From contig CANFSD010000001.1 in the NCBI GenBank assembly GCA_947449515.1, forward strand, positions 1-38,062: a stretch of 38,062 nt of DNA, read 5' to 3'. Within the stretch, counting starts at the first letter, position 1. Each line of letters begins with the position of its first letter. The translations under genes were made by a program, and so were the position numbers. Below are positions 1 to 37,279 of the stretch, piece after piece. The notes under the pieces were generated by a model. The model had not been told where the DNA came from. It did no database searches and saw only the letters and a program-made list of their open reading frames with translations. The stretch is from Bacteroidota bacterium. Lineage in GTDB: Bacteria; Bacteroidota; Bacteroidia; UKL13-3.

Positions 1-162
1 AGTCCTTCATCTCTCGAAAATGCAGAAAGCCTAGAGCAATTGCGTTGGTTGGAGCATGGTTTTAAAATTAAATTGGTTCGAACCAATTTTGACAGCCATT
101 GCATAGATACCCCAGAAGATGTGGCAAAAGTTACCCAATTAATGGGTGGAAAAATTAACTAG
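1..162 (+). CDS. kdsB: 3-deoxy-manno-octulosonate cytidylyltransferase (CMP-KDO synthetase), C-terminal fragment; the 5' end lies outside the window
   Basis: Frame 1 is open from base 1 to TAG at 160-162; it is absent from the ORF track because it has no start. The translation ...SLEQLRWLEHGFKIKLVRTNFDSHCIDTPEDVAKVTQLMGGKIN resembles the conserved KdsB C-terminus (LEQLR..LE.G ... DTPEDL). Only 53 codons are visible. Confidence 0.6.
   Translation, partial: SPSSLENAESLEQLRWLEHGFKIKLVRTNFDSHCIDTPEDVAKVTQLMGGKIN
75..84. repeat. GGTTCGAACC iterated palindrome, copy 1 (extends to a 20-bp perfect palindrome AAATTGGTTCGAACCAATTT at 70-89)
   Basis: Read directly. It lies inside the kdsB fragment with codon phase G|GTT|CGA|ACC (L-V-R-T). 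Confidence 0.9.
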
Positions 163-1364
163 TTTCCTTTTTCTAAATCTGAATAAAGCAGGTAAGGTCG
201 GCGCATATTGCGGTACTTCACCAAGCCAGCTTGCCAACTTTTTCTTATTTCCTCTTCCGTTTTTCCAGCAATAATTTGCTTGCGGAGCATATCGGTTCCA
301 GCTAATTTATCAAAAAACGAATTAAAGTAAGCCGCTTTATTGTCGTCGTTTTTATATAATTCAATGAGCCAATACAGGTTCAATTTGTTTTCAAATGGGG
401 CTAGGTTCTTTGCGTAATCTGTTAACAAAAATCCTGTACATTGTTTTCCCTCAAATGGTGGATGCTCTGCAATTCCCGGTAAATTAACAGGTGTAAAGGT
501 GTCTGATCCAATTTTGCAAAATGGTTTGCCTACTCTTTCAAAGGGCTTTTTGGTACCTCTTCCCACGCTGTAGGGTGTACCTTCAAAAAAGCATAAACTT
601 GGATACAAATAAATGCTTCCCATGGTAGGTAAATTTGGGGATGGTGGAATAGGTAAATCATAACGACTTTGATGGGTGTAATTTTTTAATTTTACGAGCA
701 TCAAGTTGCATTTGAGTTGGTTTTTCAACCAGCCTTCACCATTTATCATTTGGGCGTATTCAGCCATGGTGCAACCATGCACAACGGGCACCGGGTGCAT
801 ACCTACAAACGACCTAAAAGCGGTATCCAAAATGGGCCCATCTATATAGGCGCCATTAGGGTTGGGTCGATCCAAAATTAACAAAGGTTTTTTCTGCTCT
901 GCGCAAGCCTCCATCACATAATGTAAAGTGGAGATATAGGTATAAAACCTAGCACCCACATCCTGGATATCAAAAATTACGATATCGAGTTTTTTTAGTT
1001 GTGCCTCATTCGGTTTTTTATAGGCACCGTATAAGGAGTAAACTGGGAGTTTTGTTTTGGCATCAATGCCAGAGGCCACCTTTTCTCCAGCGCTATGATC
1101 TCCCCTAAAGCCATGTTCAGGTGCGAAAATGCATACTACTTTTATTTTCTTTTTAAGTAAAAAATCTACCAAATGCATTTGGCCAACTGTTGCGGTTTGG
1201 TTCACTACTAATCCTACTTTTTTGTCTTTGAGCAAACTGAGGTATTTTTCTGGTTGATCTGCACCCGGAATTTGGGCAAACAAATTGTTTCCAAGTAGGA
1301 AAAAGCACAAAAGCCAGATACAGTGATTATATTTGAGCTGAATTATGAAGTTTAGTTTTTTCAT
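159..1364 (-). CDS. DUF1343 family protein (NamZ-like exo-beta-N-acetylmuramidase), secreted
   Basis: 401-aa ORF with an ATG start and an N-terminal signal-like segment (CIWLLCFFLLGNNLFAQ). Motifs VGLVVNQTA, FAPEHGFRG and FDIQDVGARFYTYISTL are typical of DUF1343. Confidence 0.7.
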   Translation of the reverse strand: MKKLNFIIQLKYNHCIWLLCFFLLGNNLFAQIPGADQPEKYLSLLKDKKVGLVVNQTATVGQMHLVDFLLKKKIKVVCIFAPEHGFRGDHSAGEKVASGIDAKTKLPVYSLYGAYKKPNEAQLKKLDIVIFDIQDVGARFYTYISTLHYVMEACAEQKKPLLILDRPNPNGAYIDGPILDTAFRSFVGMHPVPVVHGCTMAEYAQMINGEGWLKNQLKCNLMLVKLKNYTHQSRYDLPIPPSPNLPTMGSIYLYPSLCFFEGTPYSVGRGTKKPFERVGKPFCKIGSDTFTPVNLPGIAEHPPFEGKQCTGFLLTDYAKNLAPFENKLNLYWLIELYKNDDNKAAYFNSFFDKLAGTDMLRKQIIAGKTEEEIRKSWQAGLVKYRNMRRPYLLYSDLEKGN

Positions 1365-2589
1365 TGCAAAAAGGTTAATGGCCCATAAGGCGCTTCAAAG
1401 TAATAAAAAGGGAAGCGGATTTTCAAAGTTGATTATCAACCTTGCATTGGCGGCTGTATGCGTTAGTGTAATGGTAATGATTTTGGCCACTGCCATTGTG
1501 AAGGGGTACCAAAATGAAGTGAAGGACAAACTCATTGGTTTCAATGCGCCTTTGCAAATTACCCACCTCGATTTAAATAACAGTTTTGAAAGCTTGCCAA
1601 TTGTGCGCGATACTATTATGGAAGGCTTGGCGCGCAAGAAAGAGGGCGTAGTTTTTATTCAAGCTTATGCCACCAAGGCGGGTATTATAAAAACCGAAAA
1701 TGCCTTTGAAGGAATAGTATTAAAAGGAATTGGAACAGATTTTAATTCCAATTTTTTACAAAAGAATTTATTAGAAGGCAAAATGCCAGCCTTAGCAGAT
1801 TCAATTTCCTCGCAAGAAATAGTATTATCTGCTATTACAGCAAAGCGTCTCGAATTAAAATTAGGCGACCCTGTTTATATCTATTTTATTCAAGACCCTC
1901 CAAGGGTTAGAAAGCTAAAAATTGCAGGTATTTTTGATACAGGCATGGGCGAATTGGATGAATTGTATGCCTTTGTAGATATCCGTCAGGTACAAAAACT
2001 AAATAATTGGGATCAAGCATCTATAAGTGGATATGAAATTGGTCTCAAAAATTTGGATCGAACCGAAACCGAAATTATGCGGGAAGAGATAGCTCAAATT
2101 ACGCCCTATAATATGGGATTAAGTAGTATTTATGAAATGTATCCTGCCTTGTTTGATTGGTTAAATTTGTTGGATATGAACGTGCTCATCATTATGATTT
2201 TAATGATTGCCGTTGCTGCTATAAATATGATAACAGCCTTATTGATTTTAATTTTAGAGCGCACCCAAATGATTGGTTTGTTTAAAGCAATGGGGGCGGA
2301 AGACAAACAAATTAGTTCGGTTTTTCTGTGGATGGCCATAAAAATTGTTTTACAAGGATTATTGCTTGGGAACCTGCTTGGCCTAGGTTTGGCCTATTTG
2401 CAAAAACAATTCTCTTGGATAAAATTAGATCAAAAGTCGTATTACCTCAATAGGGTGCCAATTGAAATAAATGTATTGGATGTTTTATATATAAATGTTT
2501 TTGCTTTTTTAATTTGCATGATTTTACTGCTTATTCCTGTAAAAATGGTAAGCAAAGTAAACCCTATAAAAAGTATCCAGTTTAACTAA
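1345..2589 (+). CDS. ABC transporter permease, LolC/LolE (FtsX-like) family
   Basis: 414-aa ORF. The N-terminus MKFSFFIAKRL is followed by a TM helix, a large periplasmic domain (MacB-PCD-like), then a C-terminal FtsX-type 3-TM bundle ending in ...NPIKSIQFN. Confidence 0.8.
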   Translation: MKFSFFIAKRLMAHKALQSNKKGSGFSKLIINLALAAVCVSVMVMILATAIVKGYQNEVKDKLIGFNAPLQITHLDLNNSFESLPIVRDTIMEGLARKKEGVVFIQAYATKAGIIKTENAFEGIVLKGIGTDFNSNFLQKNLLEGKMPALADSISSQEIVLSAITAKRLELKLGDPVYIYFIQDPPRVRKLKIAGIFDTGMGELDELYAFVDIRQVQKLNNWDQASISGYEIGLKNLDRTETEIMREEIAQITPYNMGLSSIYEMYPALFDWLNLLDMNVLIIMILMIAVAAINMITALLILILERTQMIGLFKAMGAEDKQISSVFLWMAIKIVLQGLLLGNLLGLGLAYLQKQFSWIKLDQKSYYLNRVPIEINVLDVLYINVFAFLICMILLLIPVKMVSKVNPIKSIQFN

Positions 2590-2591
2590 GT

Positions 2592-3386
2592 ATGGGCCTT
2601 AAATCAATTTTTCCGCAAGGTGTTAAATATCCACTTTGGTGGCTGTTCAAAGCGCCTCAGAGAAGCTATGGCTTTTATACGGTTATCACAGATTTATATG
2701 CATTGGTTCGAACCGTAAGCCCTCTTAAAACTGAGCCAGTAGCCATTAGTATTTGTGTAGGACTATATAATAGGAGTGAAACCTTTTTACAATATTTCCT
2801 GCCAAGTATTGCTCAATGTGAAAATGCACATTTAATAGAATTGTCGGTTTTTGATTGTGGCAGTTTGGATGCCGCGCAATTGGAAAAAGAGATTCGTTTG
2901 CAATTTGCGGGTAAAGTTATTTTTAAGAGTCAGGTGCATCCCTTTTCACGCGCGTTTGCCTTTAATAAAGCAGTTCGTCAGAGTTCAAATGAAATGGTTT
3001 TTCTTTGTGATGCCGATTTTTCTATTCCCCGAAATATAGTTGCCCTTTGCACCAAATACACTAGAAACAGTACTTTTTGGTTTCCAATTGTGTTTTATTT
3101 GTATAAAAACAAACCTGCTGCCTATGCTTCAAAAAATGGCGAATGGATGTTATGGGGAGGCAAGGGATTGGTGGCTTGCCGCAAAAATGCTTTTGAACGG
3201 GTAGGAGGGCTCAACGAAGCTTTTACCCAATGGGGTGGAGAGGATGAAGAGTTTTGGCTACGTTGTTACCAACACCAAGAAATAGTGCTGAGAACCAAAT
3301 GCAAAGGATTATTGCACCATTGGCATCCAAGCCTGAATCCAAAATATAAAAAGTTGGAAGAGTTGTCGGACATGGGCTTATTATAG
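2592..3386 (+). CDS. Glycosyltransferase with a beta-1,4-galactosyltransferase-like C-terminal motif (GT2/GT7-like fold)
   Basis: 264-aa ORF with an ATG 2 nt after the lolE-like stop. It carries a DxD-like CDADF and WGGEDEEFWLR, which resembles the WGGEDDD signature of the Glyco_transf_7C / beta4GalT family. Confidence 0.6.
   Translation: MGLKSIFPQGVKYPLWWLFKAPQRSYGFYTVITDLYALVRTVSPLKTEPVAISICVGLYNRSETFLQYFLPSIAQCENAHLIELSVFDCGSLDAAQLEKEIRLQFAGKVIFKSQVHPFSRAFAFNKAVRQSSNEMVFLCDADFSIPRNIVALCTKYTRNSTFWFPIVFYLYKNKPAAYASKNGEWMLWGGKGLVACRKNAFERVGGLNEAFTQWGGEDEEFWLRCYQHQEIVLRTKCKGLLHHWHPSLNPKYKKLEELSDMGLL
2705..2714. repeat. GGTTCGAACC iterated palindrome, copy 2
   Basis: Read directly. It lies inside the 2592-3386 glycosyltransferase with phase G|GTT|CGA|ACC (L-V-R-T). 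Confidence 0.9.
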
Positions 3387-3402
3387 TATATTTGTCATCC
3401 CA

Positions 3403-4158: not shown

Positions 4159-4164
4159 ATTTTA

Positions 4165-5142
4165 TTAGTTATTGAGGATATCAATTAACTTCAATAAATC
4201 TGGGTTTAAGTCTTTCTTCTTGGTTATAGAATCAATAAAAGGAGTGAGTTTTATTTTGTTATCAACCAATCCAACCATTTTATTTTTCTCACCAGCCAAT
4301 AACGCATTAACGGCACCATAACCCAATTTGGATGCCAATACACGGTCGTAGGCACTAGGCGAACCTCCTCTTTGAATATGGCCCAATATTACCACACGTG
4401 ATTCGAACCCAGGAATTTCTTTGTTGAGCATTCCTGAAATTGCGATAGAACCACCTTCAAAATTACCTTCTGCCACTACTACCAGTGAAAATGATTTTTT
4501 GCTTTGCTGGCGGTTTTTGAAAAATTCAATGAGTTTAAGGTGATCCCCTTTTACTTCGGGTAATAAAACCATTTCGGCACCACCTGCTATGGTTGCTGCA
4601 AGGGCAATAAAGCCGGCATCACGACCCATAACTTCCACAAAAAATACGCGGCCATGGCTATCTGCAGTATCTCTAATTTTATCGATGGCCTCCACGGCAG
4701 TATTAATAGCGGTATCGAACCCAATGGTTAAATCTGTTCCAAATAAATCGTTGTCGATGGTGCCTGGTGCGCCAATGGAAGGAATACCATACTCATTGTA
4801 GAAAATTTCTGCACCGGTGAAAGTACCATTACCACCAATACAAACAATGCCTTCAATACCCTGTTCAATCAAATTGTCATAGGCTTTTTTTCTACCTTCT
4901 GGTGTCATAAAAGCTTTGCTTCTTGATGATTTAAGTATGGTGCCACCTCTTTGAATAATATTACCAACCGAGCGAGAACTTAGCGGCATAAAGTTTTCTC
5001 CACCTTCAATCATTCCCTTGTATCCTTGCATTATTCCAACTACCTCCACATCATAAGACATGGCAGTTCTAACTACAGCACGCACACAGGCATTCATACC
5101 CGGGGCATCACCTCCAGAGGTAAACACAGCAATTTTCTTCAT
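4165..5142 (-). CDS. pfkA: ATP-dependent 6-phosphofructokinase
   Basis: 325-aa ORF with MKKIAVFTSGGDAPGMNA, IGGNGTFTGA, PGTIDNDL and MGRDAGFIAL, all canonical PfkA motifs. Confidence 0.95.
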   Translation of the reverse strand: MKKIAVFTSGGDAPGMNACVRAVVRTAMSYDVEVVGIMQGYKGMIEGGENFMPLSSRSVGNIIQRGGTILKSSRSKAFMTPEGRKKAYDNLIEQGIEGIVCIGGNGTFTGAEIFYNEYGIPSIGAPGTIDNDLFGTDLTIGFDTAINTAVEAIDKIRDTADSHGRVFFVEVMGRDAGFIALAATIAGGAEMVLLPEVKGDHLKLIEFFKNRQQSKKSFSLVVVAEGNFEGGSIAISGMLNKEIPGFESRVVILGHIQRGGSPSAYDRVLASKLGYGAVNALLAGEKNKMVGLVDNKIKLTPFIDSITKKKDLNPDLLKLIDILNN

Positions 5143-5150
5143 GGTGTAAA

Positions 5151-5186
5151 AATAAAAAAAGGCCGCTTCATTTGGAAGCGGCCTTT
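5151..5186 (-). terminator. Rho-independent terminator downstream of the 5208-6143 lipoprotein gene
   Basis: A 12-bp stem (5158-5169 pairs with 5175-5186, GC-rich core GGCCGCTTC/GAAGCGGCC) has a 5-nt loop. On the minus strand it is followed by TTTTTTTATTTTT. Confidence 0.7.
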
Positions 5187-6210: not shown

Positions 6211-6534
6211 TTAATTTGATTGTGCTTCGCGGGCTTCAGCAGCTTCAAAAGAATCATGTCTAAATTCATCGAAATTGTAATCTGGCATCAAATCTGTTTT
6301 GATGTGGTTTACTGTTTCGTTGAGGGCTTCGGTAAATTTATTGAAATCTTCTTTGTAAAGAAAGATTTTATGTTTTACAAAATTTCCGTCCTCAAAGCTT
6401 TTTTTACTTTCTGTAATGGTAATAAAATAATCTTTTCCTCTAGTTGATTTAACATCAAAGAAATAAGTTCTTTTGCCAGCGCGGATTTTTTTAGAAAAGA
6501 TTTCCTGACTGTCGTTTTTGTTGAATTCGTCCAT
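6211..6534 (-). CDS. PUR-like nucleic-acid-binding protein (DUF3276 family)
   Basis: 107-aa ORF. KIRAGKRTYFFDVKSTRGKDYFITITESKK...HKIFLYKEDFNKF matches the Bacteroidota DUF3276 / PUR-repeat pattern as I remember it. Confidence 0.7.
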   Translation of the reverse strand: MDEFNKNDSQEIFSKKIRAGKRTYFFDVKSTRGKDYFITITESKKSFEDGNFVKHKIFLYKEDFNKFTEALNETVNHIKTDLMPDYNFDEFRHDSFEAAEAREAQSN

Positions 6535-6627
6535 GCAATTTGTTAACTATAAACATCGGCAAAATATACGTTCAGAGTTTGTTTTCAAAACATTTTTTCA
6601 ACATGCGCAAAATAAATTCCTAATGGG

Positions 6628-8451
6628 CTATTTTAATTTAATTTCTTCTTGGATTTGCTTGTTGTAAATATCACTATATGAGCCGTTTAATTGCATAAGC
6701 GCTTGATGCGTGCCAAACTCTAAAATTTTGCCAGCTTCCAACACCAAAATTTGGTCGGCATCTTTAACCGAAGAAACGCGGTGGCTAACAATAATGAGGG
6801 TTTTATCACGCTTTATTTTTGAAAGGTTATTCAATATTTCAGATTCCGTTTTGGTATCTAAAGCGCTTAAACAATCATCCAATAATAAAACCTCGGGGTC
6901 TTTAATGAAGGCTCGTGCAATAGCAACCCTTTGTTTTTGACCGCCAGATAAACTGATACCGCGTTCCCCAACTTTGGTTTCAAATTTCTGAGGGAATTCC
7001 ATGATATTTTCATACAAGGCAGCCATTTTTGCTGCGTCTTCGGCCTTTTGTTTCTTATTTGGCGAATTTTCTTTTAAACCAAAAGAGATATTATTGGAAA
7101 GGGTATCACTGAATAAAAATACATCTTGTGGGACGTACCCAATTTGTTCCTTCCAACTCACCAGGGAACAATTTTTCAGGTTCTGCTCATCAATAAAAAT
7201 ATCACCTTCATTTGGGTCGAACAAGCGCAATAGCAATTGTATCAGGGTAGTTTTTCCAGATCCAGTGCTACCTAAAATAGCAAAGGTGCTTCCTTTGGGA
7301 ATTTCAAAGTTTAATTGATCCAAGGCAGGAATGGTCTTGCCTGGGTAGGTATAACTAACATTCTTAAATTGAATGCTATTTTGAAAGGTGGTCCTACCTG
7401 TAGTTGGAATATCCATCAATGGTTTGGTACTTAAAAACTCGTTAATTCTTGCTTGGGAGGCTGCGGCCCTCTGAATTAAACTGCTGGTATAACCCAAACT
7501 GGTTACTGGCCATACCAATAGATTTACATAAATTACAAATTCGGCAATATTGCCCAGAGTTGCATTGCCATTAATAACCTCAAGGCCCCCAATATAGATG
7601 GTTATCAAAGAGCTGAGTCCAGTTAAGAAGAGCATTAGTGGGAAGAAATAGGCTTCTACTTTTGCCAAGCGCATTTGTTTTTCTCTGTAAATATTGGTTT
7701 CCTTTTCAAAGCTTTGTTGGTTGGCTTTTTCTGCCGCAAAGGCTTTAATTACCCGAATACCAGAAAAAGCCTCCTGCACAAAGGATGTAAGGGAAGATAA
7801 TTGCTTTTGAATGGCATCACTGCGTTTATTTATTTGATTATTAACCCTATATATGGTAAACGACAATATTGGCAAAGGCAATATTACCAATAATGCCAAA
7901 TGGGCGTTAACACTAAACATTACAGTTAACACCAAAACAATAGTTAACACCAAATTAATGGCATACATAATGGCAGGTCCAACATACATTCTTACCCTGC
8001 TCACATCCTCGCTAATTCGAGCCATTAGGTCTCCAATTCTATTGTTTCTATAAAATCCTTGGTCTAAATCCTGGTAATGCTTAAAGATTTCATTTTTTAA
8101 ATCGTATTCAATGTGCCTACTCATTACTATTAAGGTTTGGCGCATGAGGTACATAAAAATGCCTCGAACCAAGGCAAAGGCTATCAGTAAAAGAAAAAAC
8201 TTTAGAACCTCTGCACCAAGGGTTTCTGTGAGCATTTCTCTGTTAATTCCTTTGCTTTGAGGGTATTGCGATAAAATATCCTTGATCAAATCAATAGCTT
8301 TCCTAACCATTTGGGCCGGAAAAATGGCAAATAGGTTCGAAGCGGCCACAAAAAGGAAGCCGAGCAATAGCCTTAATTTGTATTTAAGGAAGTATTTTCT
8401 GAGGTATCGAAGTGCTTTCAACCCTACAAAATAAAGGAAAAATAAGGACAA
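6628..8451 (-). CDS. ABC transporter, fused permease/ATP-binding protein (MsbA-like exporter)
   Basis: 607-aa ORF with a six-TM domain, then Walker A GSTGSGKTT, signature LSGGQKQR and Walker B LLLDD. The longest ORF begins with TTG at 8451 and there is no ATG near the N-terminus, so the exact start is uncertain. Confidence 0.9.
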   Translation of the reverse strand: MSLFFLYFVGLKALRYLRKYFLKYKLRLLLGFLFVAASNLFAIFPAQMVRKAIDLIKDILSQYPQSKGINREMLTETLGAEVLKFFLLLIAFALVRGIFMYLMRQTLIVMSRHIEYDLKNEIFKHYQDLDQGFYRNNRIGDLMARISEDVSRVRMYVGPAIMYAINLVLTIVLVLTVMFSVNAHLALLVILPLPILSFTIYRVNNQINKRSDAIQKQLSSLTSFVQEAFSGIRVIKAFAAEKANQQSFEKETNIYREKQMRLAKVEAYFFPLMLFLTGLSSLITIYIGGLEVINGNATLGNIAEFVIYVNLLVWPVTSLGYTSSLIQRAAASQARINEFLSTKPLMDIPTTGRTTFQNSIQFKNVSYTYPGKTIPALDQLNFEIPKGSTFAILGSTGSGKTTLIQLLLRLFDPNEGDIFIDEQNLKNCSLVSWKEQIGYVPQDVFLFSDTLSNNISFGLKENSPNKKQKAEDAAKMAALYENIMEFPQKFETKVGERGISLSGGQKQRVAIARAFIKDPEVLLLDDCLSALDTKTESEILNNLSKIKRDKTLIIVSHRVSSVKDADQILVLEAGKILEFGTHQALMQLNGSYSDIYNKQIQEEIKLK

Positions 8452-8475
8452 AAAGGGGCTTGGGTAAATTTGGAC

Positions 8476-8504
8476 TTGAAAAACGAAAAATAAGTATACT
8501 TTTG
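8476..8504 (+). promoter_or_regulatory. Putative Bacteroidota-type promoter for the dehydrogenase gene
   Basis: TACTTTTG at 8497-8504 fits the -7 consensus TAnnTTTG. A TTG lies 18 nt upstream (8476-8478), and the ATG is at 8539. Confidence 0.35.
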
Positions 8505-8538
8505 CGCCACTAAAAACTCAAAATTTAATCCATTAAGT

Positions 8539-9612
8539 ATGGCTGAACTAGAAATTTTCTCACAACTCGCTACATACGATCACGAACAAATTGTATTTTG
8601 TAACGACAACGCAACTGGACTTAAAGCAATTATTGCTATTCACAATACGGTATTAGGCCCAGGTTTGGGAGGTACACGTGTTTGGAATTACCAAAACGAG
8701 GCAGAGGCTATTAACGACGTAATGCGTTTATCTCGCGGTATGACATATAAGGCAGCTATCTCTGGGTTAAATTTAGGTGGCGCAAAGGCTGTAATTATTG
8801 GCGATGCTTCTAAAATTAAAACAGAAGCCTTGATGCGTAAATTTGGAAGATTTGTAGAAAACTTAAACGGTAAATATATTACTGCCGAGGATGTTAACAC
8901 TACTACCAAAGATATGGAATATGTGAACATGGAAACAGACCATGTGGTTGGTTTACCTGAAAGCATGGGTGGAGGAGGAGATCCTAGTCCAGTAACAGCT
9001 TATGGTGTATACATGGGTATGAAAGCAAGTGCAAAACACGTATTTGGTAACGATAGCCTTAGTGGTAAAAAAATTGCTGTTCAAGGAATTGGTAAAGTTG
9101 GTGGTCACTTATTAGACTATTTACATAAAGAAGGTGCTAAGCTTTATATCAGTGATATCAATGCAAATGTATTGAGCCATTATGCCTCAACTATGGGAGC
9201 AACTGTAGTAACTGGCGATGATATTTATAGTTTAGATATGGATGTATTTGCTCCTTGTGCAATGGGTGCCATTTTAAATACTGAAAACATTGCTAAATTG
9301 AAATGTTCAATTATTGCAGGTGCAGCAAATAACCAATTGGCAGATGAAACTGTTCATGGTCCTGCTTTAATGGAAAGAGGTATTACTTATGCCCCAGATT
9401 TCTTGATCAATGCAGGTGGTTTAATTAATGTTTACCAAGAACATATTGGTTACAATAAAGAAACAGCCATTAGAAAAGCGGAGCACATTTTTGATGTTAC
9501 TGCCGAAATTTTAAATATTTCTGCAACTGAAAAAATATACACGCAAAAAGCAGCCATGAATTTAGCTGAAAAACGCATCAATGATGTGTTGAAATTGCAG
9601 TCTACTTACTAA
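8539..9612 (+). CDS. Leucine/valine/phenylalanine dehydrogenase (Glu/Leu/Phe/Val dehydrogenase family)
   Basis: 357-aa ORF with GPGLGGTRVWNY, LNLGGAKAVI and a Rossmann motif VQGIGKVGG. The length and motifs fit the short Leu/Val dehydrogenases. Confidence 0.85.
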   Translation: MAELEIFSQLATYDHEQIVFCNDNATGLKAIIAIHNTVLGPGLGGTRVWNYQNEAEAINDVMRLSRGMTYKAAISGLNLGGAKAVIIGDASKIKTEALMRKFGRFVENLNGKYITAEDVNTTTKDMEYVNMETDHVVGLPESMGGGGDPSPVTAYGVYMGMKASAKHVFGNDSLSGKKIAVQGIGKVGGHLLDYLHKEGAKLYISDINANVLSHYASTMGATVVTGDDIYSLDMDVFAPCAMGAILNTENIAKLKCSIIAGAANNQLADETVHGPALMERGITYAPDFLINAGGLINVYQEHIGYNKETAIRKAEHIFDVTAEILNISATEKIYTQKAAMNLAEKRINDVLKLQSTY

Positions 9613-9706
9613 TTATTATTATTCCCATCGCGCAAGCGGTAAACGTTCTTTTCATAGTGCCTTTTTTATGTAATTCGTTTGCTGCTTGCATTGATATTTT
9701 TTAACT

Positions 9707-10648
9707 ATGTTGAACAGAAGATTTTTACGCGTTAAGGCATTTCAAGCTTTATATAGCTATTCCCGCGAGGAGGGAGCCAACGCTGCCGTTTGTCGCAAAC
9801 AGCTATTAAATGGTTTAGACAAAACCTATGAATTGTATCTGTTCTTATTGTCTTTTGGTGTTGAGTTTAAAGCTTTTTTGAACCAAGAATTAGAAACCGA
9901 AAAGGCAAAATACATTCCCTCTTCCGAACAAATTTCATTGATCCAACGCCTAATAAATAATCAGGCTGTTGCCGTAATTGAAAATAATTCAGCTTTTAAT
10001 AAAGGTCTCAAAGATTATAAAGTCTTATGGAATAACCACAGCGATTTATTTCGTCAGGTTTGGATCGAACTTAAAGGTCATGATTTGTTAAAAAGCTATT
10101 TGCTCAATGAAACACCCAGTTTGATTGATGACAAGAACTTCTTAGCTGGAATGCTTGAATGGCTTACTGCAGATTTTGAATTGTTTGAATCTTTTATTGA
10201 AGATCGTTTTGTTAATTGGGAAGACGACCAAGTTTTGGTGCTTACCACTTTGCAAAAAACTTTGCAAATGCTAAAACCAAATTCTGTTAACATACTGCCA
10301 GAAAAGCACAAAGATGAAGAGGAAGACCTCAAATTTGTGAAGCAGTTATTTGATGAATGCGTGCAAAATGACCAGGAATTAACCCTACTTATTTCTGCCA
10401 AAACACAAAATTGGGACCAAGATCGTATAGCTTTGGTAGATATGATTTTGATGAAAATGGCATTGTGTGAAGTTTTGTATTTTCCATACATACCCTTGAA
10501 AGTTAGCATCAATGAATACCTTGAATTGGCCAAGTTATACAGCACGCCAAATAGCCATGGATTTATCAATGGTGTTTTAGATAAGGTGCAAATTGAATTG
10601 AAAAAAGAAAATAAAATTAATAAATTGGGCAGGGGTTTAGTAAACTAA
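9707..10648 (+). CDS. nusB: Transcription antitermination factor NusB (long Bacteroidota form)
   Basis: 313-aa ORF. It has a NusB-like N-terminal helix (RRFLRVKAFQALYSY) and C-terminal core (DRIALVDMILMKMALCEVLYF...INEYLELAKLYSTPNSHGFINGVLDKV), separated by a long insert. Confidence 0.7.
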   Translation: MLNRRFLRVKAFQALYSYSREEGANAAVCRKQLLNGLDKTYELYLFLLSFGVEFKAFLNQELETEKAKYIPSSEQISLIQRLINNQAVAVIENNSAFNKGLKDYKVLWNNHSDLFRQVWIELKGHDLLKSYLLNETPSLIDDKNFLAGMLEWLTADFELFESFIEDRFVNWEDDQVLVLTTLQKTLQMLKPNSVNILPEKHKDEEEDLKFVKQLFDECVQNDQELTLLISAKTQNWDQDRIALVDMILMKMALCEVLYFPYIPLKVSINEYLELAKLYSTPNSHGFINGVLDKVQIELKKENKINKLGRGLVN

Positions 10649-21243: not shown

Positions 21244-22905
21244 TTACAAGCCTCGTTTCTTTAAAAAGTAGGTGCTTAAGTAATTTACGTCGTGGGCATT
21301 AAAACACATTTCTTTGTTCAATCCACCTTTTCTTGCTACCGCAACGCCAAAGAACATATCATTGAATCCTTCAACCTCATGCGCATCTGGATTGATACTA
21401 ATCATAACTCCTTTGTTAAGGGCATATTCAATATGACGCCAATCTATATCCAATCTGTAAGGGTTGGCATTTAATTCTATTATTACATGATTGGCAGCAC
21501 AGGCATCAATAATTTTTTGATGGTCAATCGGATAACCTTCCCTCATTAATAACAATCGTCCAGTTGGATGGCCTAAAATGGTGGTATAGGGGTTTTCTAT
21601 AGCGCGTATTAACCTGCTCATTGCTTTTTCTTCGGTCATCTTTAGAATACTATGAACGGAGGCAACAACGTAATCAAATGATTTTAATATTTCATTCGAA
21701 TAATCCATTTGGCCATCATATAAAATATCACATTCAATGCCTGCAAATATTTTGAATTTGCCTGCATATTTTTGATTGAGTTTTGCAATTTCAGCTTGTT
21801 GTAAAATTACCTTTTCCTCGGATAAGCCACTGGCATAAAAAGCACTTTTAGAATGGTCGGCCATTCCCAAATATTCATAACCTTTTTCCATGCAATAATT
21901 AGCCATGGTTTCAATGGTATGTAAACCGTCACTCCAGGTTGAATGATTGTGCAGAGGTCCCTTTAAGTCGGTATACTCAATAAAATTGGGGAGTTTATTT
22001 GCGATAGCTTTTTCAATTTCGCCTCGGTTTTCTCTGTACTCAGAAATAATGAAAGGTAAACCAGCTGCTTCATAAATTGCTGATTCATTTATAAAACTAT
22101 TTGGTTTCGGTTCGATCCGAGACATGATTGCATTAAAATGTTCTTGCTGAGAGCCTCTTTCAAATTGTTTATTTACGTATTCTTTTGGATGGACAATGGT
22201 TAAATGAATGGGATAACCTTCAAATTTAATTTCTTCTACTGAACCTTCTTCTTCTCCAAAATACTGCAACCATTCTTCTCTAAAGGATGCTTCATCGTCT
22301 GTTGAAATAAGTAATTCAATCTCTGTTAGTATTTCTAATTTTCTTCTTATTTCGCCACTTAAATCAACCTTTTCTATGGTTTCAAATTCGTCTAAAATAC
22401 TAAGTAGTTTGAGAGCAACAGGGTAGGCTTTTGCGTAATGAAATTTATTTGCGCTTACAAAAATAAACTCAATTTGTTTGATAATAGCCTCTTGGGTTTT
22501 TAAACCAAAACCTTTGAATTGGGCAAGTCTGTTTTCTTTACAGGCATATAATAATTCGCCAATAGATTCAACCCCAATTTCTTTCCAAATAATGGCAACT
22601 TTTTTAGGCCCAATGCCTTTAATACGCATAATGTCTCTGACGCCTTCGGGCGTTGCTTCTATTAATTCAGTTAATTCGGCAAAGGAATTAGTGCTGCATA
22701 TTTCATGTATTTTTTGAGCAATACTTTTGCCAACTCCTTCCATGGCTTCCAATTCTTGCAATGATTTACCAAAAAGAGGTTCCAACATTTTGTCGATACG
22801 GAAAGAGGCCGCAGCAAACGATTTTATTTTAAATGGATTCCCATTGTGAAGTTCACTTAAATCTGCGTATAATTTTAAGATATCTGCTAGGTCTGAATTT
22901 GTCAT
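21244..22905 (-). CDS. polX: Family X DNA polymerase with C-terminal PHP phosphoesterase domain
   Basis: I chose the ATG at 22905 (MTNSDLADILKLYADLSELHNGNPFKIKSF) over the TTG at 22935. HhH motifs GVGKSIAQKI and IKGIGPKK are present. The C-terminal PHP domain has LHNHSTWSDG, MADHS and HPTGR. Confidence 0.85.
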   Translation of the reverse strand: MTNSDLADILKLYADLSELHNGNPFKIKSFAAASFRIDKMLEPLFGKSLQELEAMEGVGKSIAQKIHEICSTNSFAELTELIEATPEGVRDIMRIKGIGPKKVAIIWKEIGVESIGELLYACKENRLAQFKGFGLKTQEAIIKQIEFIFVSANKFHYAKAYPVALKLLSILDEFETIEKVDLSGEIRRKLEILTEIELLISTDDEASFREEWLQYFGEEEGSVEEIKFEGYPIHLTIVHPKEYVNKQFERGSQQEHFNAIMSRIEPKPNSFINESAIYEAAGLPFIISEYRENRGEIEKAIANKLPNFIEYTDLKGPLHNHSTWSDGLHTIETMANYCMEKGYEYLGMADHSKSAFYASGLSEEKVILQQAEIAKLNQKYAGKFKIFAGIECDILYDGQMDYSNEILKSFDYVVASVHSILKMTEEKAMSRLIRAIENPYTTILGHPTGRLLLMREGYPIDHQKIIDACAANHVIIELNANPYRLDIDWRHIEYALNKGVMISINPDAHEVEGFNDMFFGVAVARKGGLNKEMCFNAHDVNYLSTYFLKKRGL

Positions 22906-22959: not shown

Positions 22960-22999
22960 AACTAACCCTTCGAGGGTTTAAACCCTCGAAGGGTTAGTT
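22960..22999. repeat. 40-bp perfect palindrome (20-bp arms, no spacer)
   Basis: AACTAACCCTTCGAGGGTTT|AAACCCTCGAAGGGTTAGTT, verified base by base. Each arm can also fold on itself (AACCC-TTCGA-GGGTT). It lies in the 214-bp spacer between the EamA-family gene and polX. Confidence 0.9.
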
Positions 23000-27333: not shown

Positions 27334-27335
27334 CT

Positions 27336-29751: not shown

Positions 29752-30365
29752 GTTGTTTGGCTCTTAAAATCAAGCAACAATTGTCTAATTGATTCATAGG
29801 TGTCAAAAGAATTTAAATCAATTTCCAACAAACGCATCCAGCAAACTTCGGTGATGTTTTCCTCCAATTGTGGCACCAATTCACCCGTAAATTGAGTTTC
29901 CATCTCGTACCAATGGGTCACTTTTAAAAAGCGATGTCCTTGTAATTTATAGGTATGGTAGGTGTTGTCAAAAAACCTTTTTATCTTTAATTGGTTCAAA
30001 CCACACTCTTCTTCAACTTCCCTAATAGCTCCTTCTTCAATGGTTTCTCCTGGGTCTATTTTACCCTTTGGTAAGTCCCATTTTTCTAACCTCCGCATCA
30101 TTAATATCTCTCCCGATGCATTGAATACAATTCCTCCACCTGCATGAATACTGGTAAAATTTGCCTTTAACTCTTGCATTGTTTCAGTAGGATCATCGCA
30201 AATCAAGCGTATCCCATGTTCTTGTGGCTCCTCCATTTTTCGAACCAAATCCATGAGATTCAATTCTTTGCTCATGCTAATTTGTTTGTAGGCTTCAAAA
30301 GTGTTTAAACTTTCGTTTGAACTTGTGAGGATTAAAGGCTTATCGTTTATGAAAAATTTATACAT
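29748..30365 (-). CDS. NUDIX hydrolase
   Basis: I chose the ATG at 30365 (MYKFFINDKPLIL) over the TTG at 30392. The Nudix box is GKIDPGETIEEGAIREVEEECGL. Confidence 0.8.
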   Translation of the reverse strand: MYKFFINDKPLILTSSNESLNTFEAYKQISMSKELNLMDLVRKMEEPQEHGIRLICDDPTETMQELKANFTSIHAGGGIVFNASGEILMMRRLEKWDLPKGKIDPGETIEEGAIREVEEECGLNQLKIKRFFDNTYHTYKLQGHRFLKVTHWYEMETQFTGELVPQLEENITEVCWMRLLEIDLNSFDTYESIRQLLLDFKSQTT

Positions 30366-30373: not shown

Positions 30374-31015
30374 ATGCAAATAAGTGAACCAATCGCTACA
30401 AAGATAGCGGAATATTTATTGGAGATAAAAGCCATTAAACTCGAACCAAATAATCCTTTTACTTGGGCCTCTGGATTAAAATCACCTATATACAGCGATA
30501 ACCGTTTGTCTCTATCACATCCCGCTATCAGAAGTTTTATCAAAAATGCTTTGGCAGAACAAATCCGTATCAACTACCCTCAAGTAGAGGCTATCATTGG
30601 GGTTGCTACTGCCGGTATTGCCCCTGGAGCCCTTGTAGCAGATGCCATGGAATTACCATTTGGTTATGTTAGGTCCGAACCTAAAAAACATGGCATGGGC
30701 AAACAAGTGGAAGGCGATATTCGTCCAGAACAAGCAGTGGTTGTAATTGAAGATTTAGTTTCTACCGGAAAAAGCAGTCTTCAAGCTATTGATGCTTTGC
30801 GCAGTTTTGGTTCAAATGTGCTAGGACTTGCGAGTATTTTCACTTATGGTTTTGAAACCGCTCAAAATAATTTCGACAATGCAAACTGTCCTTATTTTGC
30901 ACTTTGTAATTACGACGCATTAATTGAAGTAGCCGTGGCAAAAGGATATGTAAATAGTTCGGATAAAGAAGTATTAGCTGCTTGGAGAAAAAATCCAGAA
31001 ATTTGGGGTAAATAA
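30374..31015 (+). CDS. pyrE: Orotate phosphoribosyltransferase
   Basis: 213-aa ORF with FTWASGLKSPIY.DNR and the PRPP loop VVVIEDLVSTGKS. Confidence 0.9.
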   Translation: MQISEPIATKIAEYLLEIKAIKLEPNNPFTWASGLKSPIYSDNRLSLSHPAIRSFIKNALAEQIRINYPQVEAIIGVATAGIAPGALVADAMELPFGYVRSEPKKHGMGKQVEGDIRPEQAVVVIEDLVSTGKSSLQAIDALRSFGSNVLGLASIFTYGFETAQNNFDNANCPYFALCNYDALIEVAVAKGYVNSSDKEVLAAWRKNPEIWGK

Positions 31016-32050: not shown

Positions 32051-32736
32051 TGCAAGATTTTGTTATCAATATCACCGGAATAGGTAAAACATATCGCATC
32101 GGTGAGGTGATAGTTAATGCATTGCGCGAAGTAGATTTGCAAATTAAAAAAGGCGAATATGTTGCATTAATGGGGCCTTCGGGTTCGGGTAAATCTACCC
32201 TAATGAATATACTGGGTTGCCTTGATACACCTAGCAGAGGTAAGTATTTTCTAAATGGCACAGATGTGAGTAACATGACAGATAATGAACTCGCAGAAAT
32301 TAGGAACAAAGAAATTGGATTTATTTTTCAAACTTTTAACCTGCTTGCACGAAACACTTCATTAGACAATGTTGCATTGCCGCTCGTATATGCAGGCATG
32401 TCTAAAAAAGACAGAATTGCAAAAGCAGAAGAAGCACTTACAAGCGTTGGTCTTGGCGATAGAATGGACCATAAGCCAAATGAATTATCCGGTGGGCAGC
32501 GTCAAAGAGTAGCCATTGCGCGCGCTTTGGTAAATAACCCATCCATCATTCTTGCAGATGAACCTACAGGAAATTTGGATACCAAAACTTCGGTTGAAAT
32601 CATGGAATTGATTGAAAAAATTCATGAAGCTGGCAATACCGTAATCATTGTAACACACGAAGAAGATATTGCTAAAAGAGCAAAGCGCATCATTCGTTTG
32701 CGCGATGGTTTAATTGAAGACAACGGCTTGTCTTAA
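32050..32736 (+). CDS. ABC transporter ATP-binding protein (MacB/LolD/FtsE-like)
   Basis: 228-aa ORF with Walker [10 protein letters not shown], signature LSGGQRQR and Walker [12 protein letters not shown]. The ATG overlaps the gatC stop (TAATG). Confidence 0.9.
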
Positions 32737-33572
32737 TTCAATAATCCCTCAAAATAAAAATATTCCCTGTAGCTGTCTTTTAATTTTGGTTCGAACCGAA
32801 ACAAACCAAATATACTAGAACCACTGCCACTCATAGATGCATAAACAGCACCTGCTTGATATAAACTATTTTTAATAGCTGGCAGTAGGGGATGCTTTGG
32901 GAAAATACTGTCTTCAAAATCATTGCAAAGCCTGTCTTTCCAGTTACTTGGATCTAATTTAATGATATTTTTTATTGAATTTTCTTCCCTTTGGTTTTGG
33001 TGTTTGTTAATATCAATAGTAGAAAATGCCTCAGCCGTACTTATGTGAATTTCAGGCTTAACAATAACAATCCAACAACCCTTTAAACTTAGTTCAATTG
33101 GATGTAATATTTCCCCTCGGCCCGAACCAAAACATGCTTTGTTATTGATGAAAAACGCACAATCGCTGCCAAGTTTGGCCGCGTATTGCTGTAAGTTTTC
33201 ATTGGCAATATTTAAACCAGCATATTCATTGATAAGTTTCAATGCATAGGCGCCATCTCCAGAACCTCCGCCTAATCCAGCTCCCATTGGAATGTTTTTA
33301 AGCAAGGCAAATTGCAACTTAGGGAGCGAATAATCTTTCTGTAGAAGTTGGTAGGCCTTAATTACTAAATTTTGATTGGCATCCCCTTGCACAGGAATCC
33401 CTCTCATAATTATTGGCATTGATGCAGTTTCTTCCTTTGAGGCATGAACTACTTCAAGCGCATCACATAAGGGAACAGGATAAAATACCGTTTCTAAATC
33501 GTGGTAATTATCTTCCCGCTTTCTAATAATATGCAGGCCTAAATTTATTTTGCAATTGGGAAATACAATCAT
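32733..33572 (-). CDS. ispE: 4-diphosphocytidyl-2-C-methyl-D-erythritol kinase
   Basis: 279-aa ORF with [29 protein letters not shown] (GHMP kinase motif) and MSGSGSS. Confidence 0.9.
32788..32797. repeat. GGTTCGAACC iterated palindrome, copy 4
   Basis: Read directly. It lies inside ispE on the minus strand with phase cGG|TTC|GAA|CCa (R-F-E-P). Confidence 0.9.
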
Positions 33573-34027
33573 AAAATTCTAGGGTCAAAAGTAAAGGGTT
33601 TGTTCCATAAGATTTGCACCCATTTGTCAAATGATGGATGAAGCGGATTTATTATGTAATTCATTGCTTCAGCTACCAGCACAGATGGCACCGCAAAAGC
33701 AATTGCTTTTTGTTGCTTAATAAATTGGTCGCCCACTATTTTGTTTGCTATTGGGCTAGGATAGGTTTGCCAATTTTTAGGCAAATCTTTTATTTCAAGT
33801 TTTTCAATACTTGCCTTTGTGGAAATAGAAATACATGTCAAAGCCAAATTGTTCAAACCCAATAAACCGCCACTGTTACAAGCCAATTCTAATGCGCACA
33901 ATGAAATTTGGCTCGATGTGTATAGCATTGGCGTTCCAATTGAATTCCACCTGCCTCCATATAGCTTAGCTCCTTGGCCACTTAAATCCATTGAAAATTG
34001 CGCATGACTTAATCTAAAAACTTCCAT
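33569..34027 (-). CDS. RES-domain toxin of a type II toxin-antitoxin pair
   Basis: 152-aa ORF. YGGRWNS (Arg), CALELA (Glu) and AVPSVLV (Ser) give the R-E-S signature in the expected order. It starts 2 nt after the antitoxin stop. Confidence 0.85.
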   Translation of the reverse strand: MEVFRLSHAQFSMDLSGQGAKLYGGRWNSIGTPMLYTSSQISLCALELACNSGGLLGLNNLALTCISISTKASIEKLEIKDLPKNWQTYPSPIANKIVGDQFIKQQKAIAFAVPSVLVAEAMNYIINPLHPSFDKWVQILWNKPFTFDPRIL

Positions 34028-34029
34028 CT

Positions 34030-34548
34030 TTAAGCGTAAATACCATGCTCAATTCTGCCCAAAGTTTGCATTACCAGCTTAACGCCAAAGCGAGTGTCTA
34101 AAATGGAAAGGGGAGTTTGGCCATTTAGCGCCAATAGAGGCGTTTTAAGCCAGATTTGCATGGCAATTGTATCTGAGAAAACAAGACTGGCTTTGGCGGT
34201 AACTAGGGCCAGTTCTATGGCCAATTCTGAGGAGAAGATATCTAATACCGTTTCGTCTTCAATGCGCTGAAATGTTTTTGTACTGATATGTAACAACTCG
34301 CAAAGCTTTTCTTGGTTGATGCCCAGTTGTTTTGAAATGGCAATTAAAATATTTTTTTTAATGCCATTTCGAGTGGCTTCTATGAGCATAAAATCATTGG
34401 TAAAATTTTTAGCAATGCCCAAACTTTTTGCCGCAATCTCTTCAGTAGTTTCCAATTTCTTGCCATAAGTCATTGGCCTGTCTGCAACCATATCCAGCTG
34501 AATATTCTCAGATTTTTTAGGCTTTCGGGTGTTTTTATAAGTTCTCAT
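34030..34548 (-). CDS. Xre-family / DUF2384 (MbcA/ParS-type) antitoxin
   Basis: It has an HTH-like segment (ISKQLGINQEKLCELLHISTKTFQRIE). A C-terminal WLKTPLLALNGQTPLSILDT..G...V...LGRIEHGIY matches the DUF2384 toxin-binding domain. I chose the ATG at 34548; alternatives are TTG 34569 and later ATGs at 34491 and 34473. Confidence 0.75.
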   Translation of the reverse strand: MRTYKNTRKPKKSENIQLDMVADRPMTYGKKLETTEEIAAKSLGIAKNFTNDFMLIEATRNGIKKNILIAISKQLGINQEKLCELLHISTKTFQRIEDETVLDIFSSELAIELALVTAKASLVFSDTIAMQIWLKTPLLALNGQTPLSILDTRFGVKLVMQTLGRIEHGIYA

Positions 34549-34584
34549 CTCTGCTGAATTACCCCTCAAAAATACAATTATTTT

Positions 34585-35484: not shown

Positions 35485-35723
35485 ATAGCCTCCGGTTACG
35501 TGTTTGCCATGACTAATATAATTTATCCCTTGCTTTTTGATAAGTTATTTTTCTTGCAAAATACAATTTTTATGGAGCGTTTTTGATTCGCCACAAAAAA
35601 TAATTGGTTACAAAAAAAATAAACACCTAACGACTGTTAGGGTTTGCTAAGTTCTTGATTTTAATCATTTTTTATTTTTTTGAACCTGTCCAACTTGTAC
35701 TTACTAAATGTAAATCAAAATAT

Positions 35724-36956
35724 ATGGAAACAATTTCTTTGAATGATGATTTAATGGCGCCTAATGTAATTTCAGATCCTCATGGTTATTACCGCACTCT
35801 TAGGGAAGCAGAACCAATCCATTGGAATGCCCGTTGGGGTGGTTGGGTGCTTACGGGTTACAACGAGGTGGTAGAAGTGTTGCGCGATTCTTTAAATTTT
35901 TCATCAGATCGCATGGGCTTTTTAGCCCAAGAACTTACGCAAGAGGAACAAGAATCCATTGCGCCCATCTTTAAAATCTTATCCTATTGGATGGTTTTTC
36001 GAGATCCGCCAGAACATACTGCATTGCGCATGTTACTCAACAAACATTTTACGCCAATTGCCATAGAACGATACCGTCCAATGGTGAGAAAAATAGTTCA
36101 AAAAACCTTGGATAAAGTTTTGTCAAAAGGCAAAATTGATTTTGTTAAAGACTTTGCCTATGAAGTGCCAATGACGGTTATCCTAGAATTAATTGGAGCG
36201 CCTGATTTAGATACTGAAAAAATTAAAGAATGGTCGGAGAAATTAGGTGTATTCTTTTTTATCAAAGCAGATGAACCTCGTCGCAGAGAAATTGCTTGCG
36301 AAGGAATAAATGCATTGGTAGATTATATCACCCCCTTAATTGAACAAAAAAGAGAGCGCCCAGGAATTGATTTAATTAGTTTATTGCTTTCTGCAGAAGA
36401 GGCCGGAAGTATAACAGCTAATGATGTTTTGGCCACTTGTGTGCTTTTGGTTTTTGGAGGTCATGAAACCACCATGAACCTTATTGCAAACGGCACAATG
36501 GCATTTATCAATCACCCAGATCAATGGGATAAATTTCAAAAAAATCCAGACCTCTTAAAAAAGGCAGTCGAAGAATTATTGCGTTATGATGGCTCTGTAA
36601 AATCAACAGTTCGCTGGGCTAAAGAAGATACGCAAGTAGGAAACACACTCATTAAAAAGGGCGACCGTATTCTGGTTAGCTTATCTGGTGCAAATAGAGA
36701 CCCGCAACAATTCACAGATCCAGATGGGTTAAACATTGAACGCAATCCAAATTTACATGTGGCATTTGCCCATGGAATTCATGTGTGCCTTGGTGCATCT
36801 CTTGCCCGAATGGAAGTGGAAGAAGCATTTGCTGGTTTAATCAGCAGAATTCAATGTCCAGAATTGGTTGAAGGTGCTCAATTAGAATATTATCCATCTG
36901 TAGTGCACAGAGCAATTAAAGAATTACCTGTATACATCAAGCCTTTAATTAAATAA
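35724..36956 (+). CDS. Cytochrome P450 (soluble class I bacterial type)
   Basis: I chose the ATG at 35724 (METISLNDDLMAPNVISDPHGYY). It has I-helix LLVFGGHETT, the ExxR motif in ELLRYD and the heme loop FAHGIHVCLGASLAR (Cys codon 36786-36788). Confidence 0.9.
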   Translation: METISLNDDLMAPNVISDPHGYYRTLREAEPIHWNARWGGWVLTGYNEVVEVLRDSLNFSSDRMGFLAQELTQEEQESIAPIFKILSYWMVFRDPPEHTALRMLLNKHFTPIAIERYRPMVRKIVQKTLDKVLSKGKIDFVKDFAYEVPMTVILELIGAPDLDTEKIKEWSEKLGVFFFIKADEPRRREIACEGINALVDYITPLIEQKRERPGIDLISLLLSAEEAGSITANDVLATCVLLVFGGHETTMNLIANGTMAFINHPDQWDKFQKNPDLLKKAVEELLRYDGSVKSTVRWAKEDTQVGNTLIKKGDRILVSLSGANRDPQQFTDPDGLNIERNPNLHVAFAHGIHVCLGASLARMEVEEAFAGLISRIQCPELVEGAQLEYYPSVVHRAIKELPVYIKPLIK

Positions 36957-36959
36957 ATT

Positions 36960-37199
36960 ATGGAAAACATTAAAGTCAGTGTTGATCTCAACAAATGCGT
37001 TGGCTCACAATTGTGTATTATGTTCTCTCCAACTGTTTTTGAACGCGATGGCAATGGTCAATCTAAAATAGTAAATAGGAATGGCGCCAACCTAGCAGAA
37101 ATGTTGTCAACGGCAGAGCAATGCCCACAATGTGCTATTAAGGTTGAAAATACTCAAACGGGTGAGGTTTTGTTTCCTCCACCTGAGTTGGCCTTCTAA
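36960..37199 (+). CDS. Small single-cluster ferredoxin (probably [3Fe-4S])
   Basis: 79-aa ORF starting 3 nt after the P450 stop. It has CVGSQLC (CxxSxxC) plus a distal CP (AEQCPQC), the pattern of P450-partner ferredoxins in which a non-Cys second ligand position gives a 3Fe-4S cluster. Confidence 0.8.
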   Translation: MENIKVSVDLNKCVGSQLCIMFSPTVFERDGNGQSKIVNRNGANLAEMLSTAEQCPQCAIKVENTQTGEVLFPPPELAF

Positions 37200-37220
37200 T
37201 TTTTAGTGATTCTTTTTTTT

Positions 37221-37262
37221 AGCCATTTTCTGAAAACTATTTTTGGGAAGTGGCTTTTTATT
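37221..37262 (+). terminator. Possible intrinsic terminator after the ferredoxin gene
   Basis: An imperfect 10-bp stem, AGCCATTTTC (37221-37230) with GGAAGTGGCT (37246-37255) and two G-U pairs, has a 15-nt loop and is followed by TTTTTATTT. Confidence 0.35.
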
Positions 37263-37269
37263 TAGTTCC

Positions 37270-37279
37270 GGTTCGAACC
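37270..37279. repeat. GGTTCGAACC iterated palindrome, copy 5
   Basis: Read directly. It is non-coding, between the ferredoxin terminator-like hairpin and the nnr start. It is followed by a second small dyad, AACCAAA...TTTGGTT. Confidence 0.9.

Follow-up and report, generated by a model that had tools for sequence, protein, structure and literature searches.

A palindromic signature word in a clade of uncultured freshwater Bacteroidota

Why should one and the same 10-bp palindrome, GGTTCGAACC, recur five times in 38,062 nucleotides of AT-rich DNA, mostly inside genes that are unrelated to each other? The stretch in question, hereafter the window, comprises positions 1 to 38,062 of contig CANFSD010000001.1 (assembly GCA_947449515.1), from a bacterium of the Bacteroidota lineage UKL13-3. 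An initial annotation, made from the letters alone, had suggested that selection acts here on the DNA itself, and the analysis confirms GGTTCGAACC as a genuine signature word, carried at the level of the DNA by a single clade of uncultured freshwater Bacteroidota. All five exact copies lie where they had been reported (75-84, 2705-2714, 20411-20420, 32788-32797 and 37270-37279) and the five one-mismatch copies listed with them are present; one more, GGTTCAAACC at 29993-30002, brings the sites at most one mismatch from GGTTCGAACC to 11. In dinucleotide-preserving shuffles of the window, exact copies are expected 0.01 times and sites with up to one mismatch 0.35 times. A sample of 47 kb is obtained by adding the 8.9 kb past the right end of the window, taken from a metagenome-assembled genome (MAG) of the same species, GCA_040403785.1, whose overlap with the window shows 99.9% identity; this extension holds a sixth exact copy and two GGTTCAAACC. 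Across the 47 kb, six copies are observed against 0.035 (Markov order 2) or 0.029 (order 3) expected, with P ~1e-12; models of order 4-5 are contaminated by the motif itself in a sample so small. The excess of ~200-fold agrees with the more than 100-fold estimated at the outset and lies above the threshold (at least ~15-fold relative to Markov expectation) for the class of highly iterated palindromes (HIP). In this sample GGTTCGAACC is the most over-represented 10-mer by a wide margin, no other palindrome is similarly enriched, and its density is ~128 per Mb.

Could the proteins rather than the DNA account for the copies? Because GGTTCGAACC is palindromic, G-S-N, V-R-T and F-E-P are its sole possible peptide readings, and the four genic copies in the window, in unrelated genes, use all three, just as had been described, while the fifth is intergenic. 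The copy at 75-84 lies at the 3′ end of kdsB, a gene that runs off the left edge; bases 1-159 encode the KdsB C-terminus, so that this copy reads V-R-T (in K-L-V-R-T-N), and it forms the centre of a perfect 20-bp palindrome at 70-89, which the initial annotation had also spotted. The V-R-T phase recurs at 2705-2714 in a glycosyltransferase gene (2592-3386, plus strand), G-S-N is used at 20411-20420 in a gene for a C25 peptidase/type IX secretion system (T9SS) surface protein (16208-21235, plus strand), and F-E-P at 32788-32797 near the 3′ end of ispE (32733-33572, minus strand); the copy at 37270-37279 lies between ferredoxin and yjeF genes. Coding copies counted by phase read G-S-N 12 times, V-R-T 6 times and F-E-P 5 times, and two of the three readings need the codons TCG or CGA, which are expected, presumably, to be rare in an AT-rich genome. 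The flanks of the copies are unrelated beyond ~3 nt, the one exception being two copies that share 27-45 bp in L334 (loci used for comparison bear numbers with the prefix L). With just a few flanking bases in common, the copies are not those of a mobile unit; three phases and unrelated flanks speak against a peptide motif or a duplicated element, and the signal, frame-independent and present in genes and spacer alike, is at the DNA level. GGTTCGAACC is one base shorter than the T-arm of tRNA (GGTTCRANNCC), and the literature searched holds the exact 10-mer only in tRNA and oligonucleotide contexts; in the window, however, ARAGORN finds no tRNA gene and there is no Rfam match.

How much of the neighboring DNA belongs to the word? 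Of 40 unseeded half-sites, 35 have a pyrimidine (Y) at position -1, 34 a T at -2 and 26 a T at -3; this bias makes the unit a ~16-bp dyad, TTYGGTTCGAACCRAA, wider than the 10 bp first described. The words GGTTC[GA][AG]ACC form a family with every member over-represented in the clade, whereas in the outgroup all are at or below expectation: GGTTCAAACC/GGTTTGAACC and GGTTCAGACC/GGTCTGAACC each stand tens of times above expectation in the clade, and GGTTCGGACC is less strongly enriched. The window species, with GA, AA, AG and GG centres counted 6, 3, 0 and 1 times, favours the palindrome; an AG or AA centre is favoured in L334 and several MAGs, and sister lineages favour the centre variants GGTTCAAACC and GGTTCAGACC, both of which retain the TTGGTTC half-site, with GGTTCAGACC keeping the TT flank of the left half-site. 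Deamination of 5-methylcytosine as the origin of TG/CA variants was considered and set aside: the CpG in TCGA is not hypermutable, and GGTTCAGACC, which is not a one-step product, is enriched without its mirror product. A centre that is tolerated, or shifted from lineage to lineage into “dialects,” would fit the variants better. Such dialects are also a feature of the DNA uptake sequence (DUS) and the uptake signal sequence (USS), and here the GA, AA, AG and GG centres are enriched variably by lineage and absent from the outgroup.

Beside its exact copies, the window carries several members and near-members of this family. The GGTTCAAACC at 29993-30002 encodes part of the Nudix box of a NUDIX gene and is kept in L205 and L209; GGTCCGAACC (reverse complement GGTTCGGACC) at 30672-30681 lies in a phosphoribosyltransferase gene, where L205 and L334 have the same word and L209 has GGTTCAGACC. 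The other one-mismatch copies are GGATCGAACC at 2055-2064, which has the flank TTTGG.TCGAACCGAAAC in common with the site at 32788, GATTCGAACC at 4400-4409 in pfkA, GGTTCGAAGC at 8334-8343 in a gene for an ATP-binding cassette (ABC) transporter, and GGTTCGATCC at 22109-22118, flanked by TTTC. Two further words, GGTTCAGCCA and GGTTCAGAAC, are also recurrent in the window genome and clade loci. GTTAAC occurs 19 times in the window genome against 7.5 expected (2.5-fold), and was rejected as part of the signal, being unconnected with the motif.

How far does the word extend beyond this DNA? The enrichment persists in the 8.9-kb extension, in close relatives (70-85% nucleotide identity) and on many MAG contigs, and is clade-specific and dispersed, in line with the HIP1- or uptake-like behaviour proposed at first; distant relatives lack it. 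A scan of one genome per species with the 14-mer TTGGTTCGAACCAA, which gave at least 120 rows, matched at least eight Bacteroidota MAGs (35-39% GC) on two to four different contigs each, against ~0.02 copies expected per genome by our own base-composition estimate. Two or more of these eight are related to the window organism: JAUYMZ01 (uvrD 74% identical in nucleotides) and NKJG01 (syntenic, with IspE 59% identical). UvrD-anchored loci serve as a clean control: the word is found in L123 and L124, which are close relatives, and 77 loci at UvrD identity of at most 61% (1.09 Mb) have one copy where 0.5-1.1 are expected. Among IspE-anchored loci, L205 (84% nucleotide identity to the window) has three exact copies, L209 (82%) one, L332 (which is NKJG01) one, and L334 (60% IspE identity) two. 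Unseeded relatives have ~50-140 copies per Mb. A density of ~350 per Mb is seen in L330, a Bacteroidia contig of 45% GC that came up in a scan of viral contigs and has five copies in 14.1 kb of host DNA; four of these share a single M4-peptidase gene, where their flanks are unrelated and all three phases occur. The adjoining Mu-like prophage has none in 9.5 kb (P ~0.08).

Not every match to the 14-mer belongs to this pattern. In Flavobacteriaceae it sits in a conserved coding context, ...CAAAACTTGGTTCGAACCAATCAAA... (L033, L037, L044, L046, L074, L077, L078, L080, L096, L105, L109, L113, L117 and L118 make up one list of conserved-context loci), and a second such context, ...CCTCCTAAAACTACTTGGTTCGAACCAAAATT..., spans phyla (a second list comprises L002, L011, L042, L045, L061, L062, L064, L070 and L116); judged by these contexts, the 14-mer in the many unrelated species concerned is a by-product of a conserved peptide. 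In three related viral contigs (L290 8909-9548, L314 2597-3317 and L321 13438-13681) it is part of an 81-nt (27-aa) tandem repeat within the coding sequence of a large structural gene; such copies are real duplicates and have nothing to do with the dispersed ones. The prophage end seen in L330 and L331 (1-9500; also in L296) encodes a transposase-like 679-aa open reading frame (ORF), AAA_22, DUF3164 and an S24 repressor, and is integrated beside the M4 peptidase/T9SS gene (JGI 3300038391); IMG/VR lists the contig as viral, yet its last 3.6 kb are host DNA. The idea that phages are enriched in the word was dropped: multi-copy matches on viral contigs are either 81-nt tandem coding repeats or host DNA next to a prophage. 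Finally, a Myxococcota MAG of 75% GC (JAWLBL01; L115 3770-4160) repeats the 10-mer ten times, once every ~42 bp, in a tandem array that is AT-richer than its very GC-rich genome.

How does a genome come by such copies, and how long does it keep them? At one position the window, L122 and L124 read GG[CAT] CC[GA] AAC C and L123 carries a copy, completed by one C-to-T substitution that replaces Pro by Ser in a conserved peptidase motif, VTGPNRDLHSG. This alignment shows that copies can arise via single-base substitution, and that a conserved residue is no bar to it. The window and L123 (68-80% nucleotide identity) have zero sites in common: at the position orthologous to 20411, L123 reads Q-R-N-N, without the motif, and the one-mismatch copies at 4400 and 8334 are not kept. 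At 82-85% identity, the site at 32788 is kept in both relatives, L205 and L209, and that at 37270 in L205; exact-site conservation is thus 2/2 and 1/2, against a background of 21-25% for any 10-mer. In these comparisons some copies are retained between species at ~83% identity, and at ~75% the copies have turned over.

Is the word linked to rearrangement? When the window is aligned with both L205 and L209 (15.8-20.7 kb), a single large internal indel appears, a gap of 1685 bp on the L209 side. The gap takes out a cytochrome P450-ferredoxin cassette (35595-37269 in the window, plus strand) that is flanked by motif positions on both sides. In L205, where the cassette spans 6305-7977, two exact direct copies of GGTTCGAACC form its boundaries; in the window, the junction at 37270 is exact and that at 35585-35594 is the degenerate GATTCGCCAC (6/10 matches), the L205 ortholog of which is exact GGTTCGAACC; and in L209 a single hybrid remnant, AGATCGAACC (~3305), fuses the outer flanks. 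Because the cassette is also found in the more distant NKJG01, its loss from the L209 lineage by deletion between two copies would be the simplest history. No GGTTCGAACC copies lie inside the cassette. From one close relative to another, the P450 and ferredoxin genes are present or absent together as a cassette, and a hairpin with a T-run lies just within one of its ends (35626-35642). In L334, a 5.7-kb chemotaxis/kinase insertion adjoins one of the two copies noted above, which have 27-45 bp in common and lie 8 kb apart. Where the window is compared with L123, the indel junctions are mostly not motif-associated, a family member being nearby in one of three. The L123 insertions, in a locus otherwise collinear with the window, are 7281-9986, which ends 5 nt from a GGTTCAAACC; 12282-13819, which carries a 280-aa ORF with GGTTTGAACC and a CATACTTCA-like short-repeat run at its end; and 14813-15414.

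What, then, is the word? We read GGTTCGAACC as the core of the ~16-bp dyad word, a genomic signature of the HIP1/DUS class amplified chromosome-wide in one clade, and give this reading about even credence. The use we prefer for it, drawn by analogy, is that of a self-DNA tag in DNA exchange or recombination; this is a more tentative proposal, held at somewhat less than even confidence. The length and symmetry of the word suggest a dimeric reader, a protein that would recognize the ~16-bp dyad as double-stranded DNA; mutational decay would be offset by an advantage, from molecular drive or selection, of alleles that gain the word; and the word would then bias uptake or recombination toward self-DNA, as DUS/USS do and as has been proposed for HIP1. 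A role in exchange would suit a density class of 130-350 per Mb, dialects that vary by lineage, the position of copies at the junctions of the cassette and of an insertion, and an adjacent prophage without any. A bolder version, which we think unlikely, would make the family TTGGTTC[GA][AG]ACC a self-recognition signal for exchange with genus-level dialects, the first in its phylum and the first palindromic one outside cyanobacteria, spread by a molecular drive that overrides conserved residues and frames exchangeable cassettes.

The comparison with known systems shows where the likeness lies and where it ends. Like HIP1 (GCGATCGC) and the alternate cyanobacterial HIPs, which are 15-300-fold over-represented (PMC4390886; PMC5861425), GGTTCGAACC is a short perfect palindrome that occurs in coding and non-coding DNA regardless of frame, originates by point substitution, has lineage variants that replace one another and is partly conserved in position between genomes. 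It differs in sequence and phylum, in being a 10-bp core of a ~16-bp dyad rather than 8 bp, in its composition (60% GC in a 37% GC genome, whereas HIP words are at least 75% GC bar one derivative), in its density (~130 per Mb, ~350 in one relative, as compared with 300-2700), in the lack of a methyltransferase-type bias in its inner words, and in the co-enrichment of an asymmetric member, GGTTCAGACC. Its 60% GC and its Bacteroidota host mean that it is neither HIP1 nor a listed alternate HIP but behaves like that class. What HIP1 does is itself debated: models invoke methylation/repair, chromosome structure or DNA uptake, and a role in transformation has been put forward recently (10.64898/2026.06.24.733823). 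DUS of Neisseriaceae and USS of Pasteurellaceae share with the word a 9-12-nt core with biased flanks (PMC3630211, PMC2397512), copy numbers from the hundreds into the thousands, within genes and between them, dialects at the level of the genus, an association with recombination and the ability to force amino-acid changes; they are scarce in recently acquired DNA, to which the empty prophage may be likened. They differ in being asymmetric, in their density of ~1 per kb and, for DUS, in often forming inverted pairs in terminators; for them a receptor (ComP) and natural competence, neither of which is known from this clade, have been demonstrated. Repetitive extragenic palindromes and the mosaic elements built from them (REP/BIME), and miniature inverted-repeat transposable elements (MITEs), are also repeated palindromic DNA; these, however, are imperfect palindromes of 20-40 nt or more copied as units into intergenic DNA, whereas the copies here have only the word in common, are mostly genic and originate by substitution. 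By analogy, the word is best filed as HIP/DUS-like and a member of neither class, the GC-richness and the cyanobacterial host being different and a methyltransferase and a receptor not established.

Several points weigh against reading the word as a HIP1/DUS-class tag. To our knowledge, the uptake sequences described so far are not palindromic, and we know of none in Bacteroidota. The word is linked to no binding protein, competence gene or methyltransferase, no search for one within a chosen genome having been made. Deletion between two copies, as proposed for L209, could be a passive effect of any repeated 10-mer, and the prophage-versus-host contrast is weak. Positional conservation is suggestive of constraint and falls short of proof. 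The density itself has a limited basis, ~47 kb of the window species and ~300 kb of relatives that were partly selected for a copy, and it is below the range typical of HIP1 (PMC4390886).

If not for exchange, could the word be kept for the chromosome itself? The alternative that survives best, though we regard it as improbable, takes the copies as binding sites of a nucleoid-organising or segregation protein and their maintenance as selection for chromosome structure. Sites of this kind (matS, SlmA-binding, Noc-binding and parS) are 12-16-bp palindromes bound by dimers and placed in genes regardless of frame; they number tens per chromosome, lie in one region and are conserved in position. 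The ~16-bp perfect dyad would suit a dimeric DNA-binding protein, the in-gene, frame-independent placement is like that of matS, Noc-binding sites and parS, and some sites are conserved between species while the motif co-evolves between lineages. Against this stand a density of 130-350 per Mb, which amounts to hundreds to more than 1000 sites per genome where the known systems have tens; full turnover at ~75% identity; copies spread across many MAG contigs rather than in one cluster; and the association with junctions, which organiser sites leave unexplained. Density and turnover disfavour this alternative. A parS-like regional cluster is in turn disfavoured by the multi-contig matches in relatives, less clearly so for the window species. 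Selection on chromosome structure has been proposed for HIP1 by Xu et al. (PMC5861425).

Slightly more doubtful still is a ratchet of methylation-coupled repair, in which a cytosine methyltransferase would mark the central CpG and biased mismatch repair would make or restore copies that have no function, as in the model of Elhai for HIP words (PMC4390886) or by over-correction of the very-short-patch type. The initial annotation had taken the TCGA/TTCGAA core as a hint of methyltransferase or restriction targets; the core is indeed there and each GTTCGAAC falls within the 10-mer, but the hint finds no support. Observed/expected ratios (O/E) for TCGA and TTCGAA are 0.99-1.05 (order 2) in the window genome and in the genus, so that these inner words are neither driven nor avoided as restriction-modification targets would be, and transitions at CpG in TCGA among three relatives (0.20) do not exceed those at all CpG (0.24) or at the non-CpG equivalent (0.20). 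The literature searched contains no link of TTCGAA to a methylome. In favour of the ratchet, the variants with a transition at the centre, GGTTTGAACC/GGTTCAAACC, show ~14-fold enrichment in the clade and GGTTTAAACC shows none, and cyanobacterial HIP words co-occur with methyltransferases that recognize their inner sequence (PMC4390886). Yet GGTTCAGACC is as enriched as the transition variants and the mirror decay product is not, and a specificity of ~16 bp is far longer than typical methyltransferase sites. The sub-word and CpG tests disfavour the ratchet.

Could no recognizer be involved at all? A neutral by-product of mutation, such as template-switch correction of quasi-palindromes combined with an oligonucleotide bias of the clade, is very unlikely. 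The dyad is often extended by the flanks, and the hexamer TGGTTC is 2-3 times denser in the clade than in outgroup loci of similar GC (1.27 versus 0.46 per kb), a surplus that persists after the 10-mer family is removed. Template switching, however, perfects existing palindromes and does not select a single sequence; a 2-3-fold hexamer bias is insufficient for a 200-fold excess of a 10-mer; and one copy was made at a conserved proline. Chance, a conserved peptide motif, one duplicated or mobile element, a tRNA-derived sequence and an assembly artefact are excluded and retain a negligible probability, for although some 14-mer matches elsewhere are conserved coding contexts (as in many Flavobacterium species), others are tandem coding repeats in phage genes, and the word resembles the T-arm form GGTTCGAATCC, these explanations fail on the P value, on the three phases in four unrelated genes with unrelated flanks, on the absence of tRNA and Rfam matches, and on the recovery of the same sites in independent assemblies from NCBI, ENA, JGI and Logan.

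Other features of these loci deserve a record. At 22960-22999, between eamA and a PolX/PHP gene, the window has a spacerless 40-bp perfect palindrome (AACTAACCCTTCGAGGGTTT and AAACCCTCGAAGGGTTAGTT) with a TTCGA/TCGAA core in each arm and without the 10-mer. A RES toxin and Xre/MbcA/ParS-type antitoxin pair occupies 33569-34569, between ispE and an unannotated 277-299-aa gene; the pair is kept in L205, L209 and L332 and missing in L334. A complex tandem array with 14/21/35-nt spacing (GCCAGATGCCAGCC...) lies in L334 at 1131-1366, with inverted partners at 979-1055.

Why does one more short palindrome matter? Iterated signature words have been studied deeply in only a few groups, HIP1, the DUS/USS of two proteobacterial families and Chi, and their origin and role are disputed. 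The literature searched reports no uptake or iterated words in Bacteroidota; no similar word was found for this phylum. A second, independent palindromic case would allow a comparative test of the repair ratchet, uptake drive and chromosome structure, for which this clade is useful since its sister lineages differ, some being dominated by the intact palindrome and others by centre variants. The word may also serve as a marker when MAGs of this clade are binned or screened for foreign DNA, and in its 16-18-bp form, for example TTTYGGTTCGAACCRAAA, it offers a defined bait for the protein that would read it.

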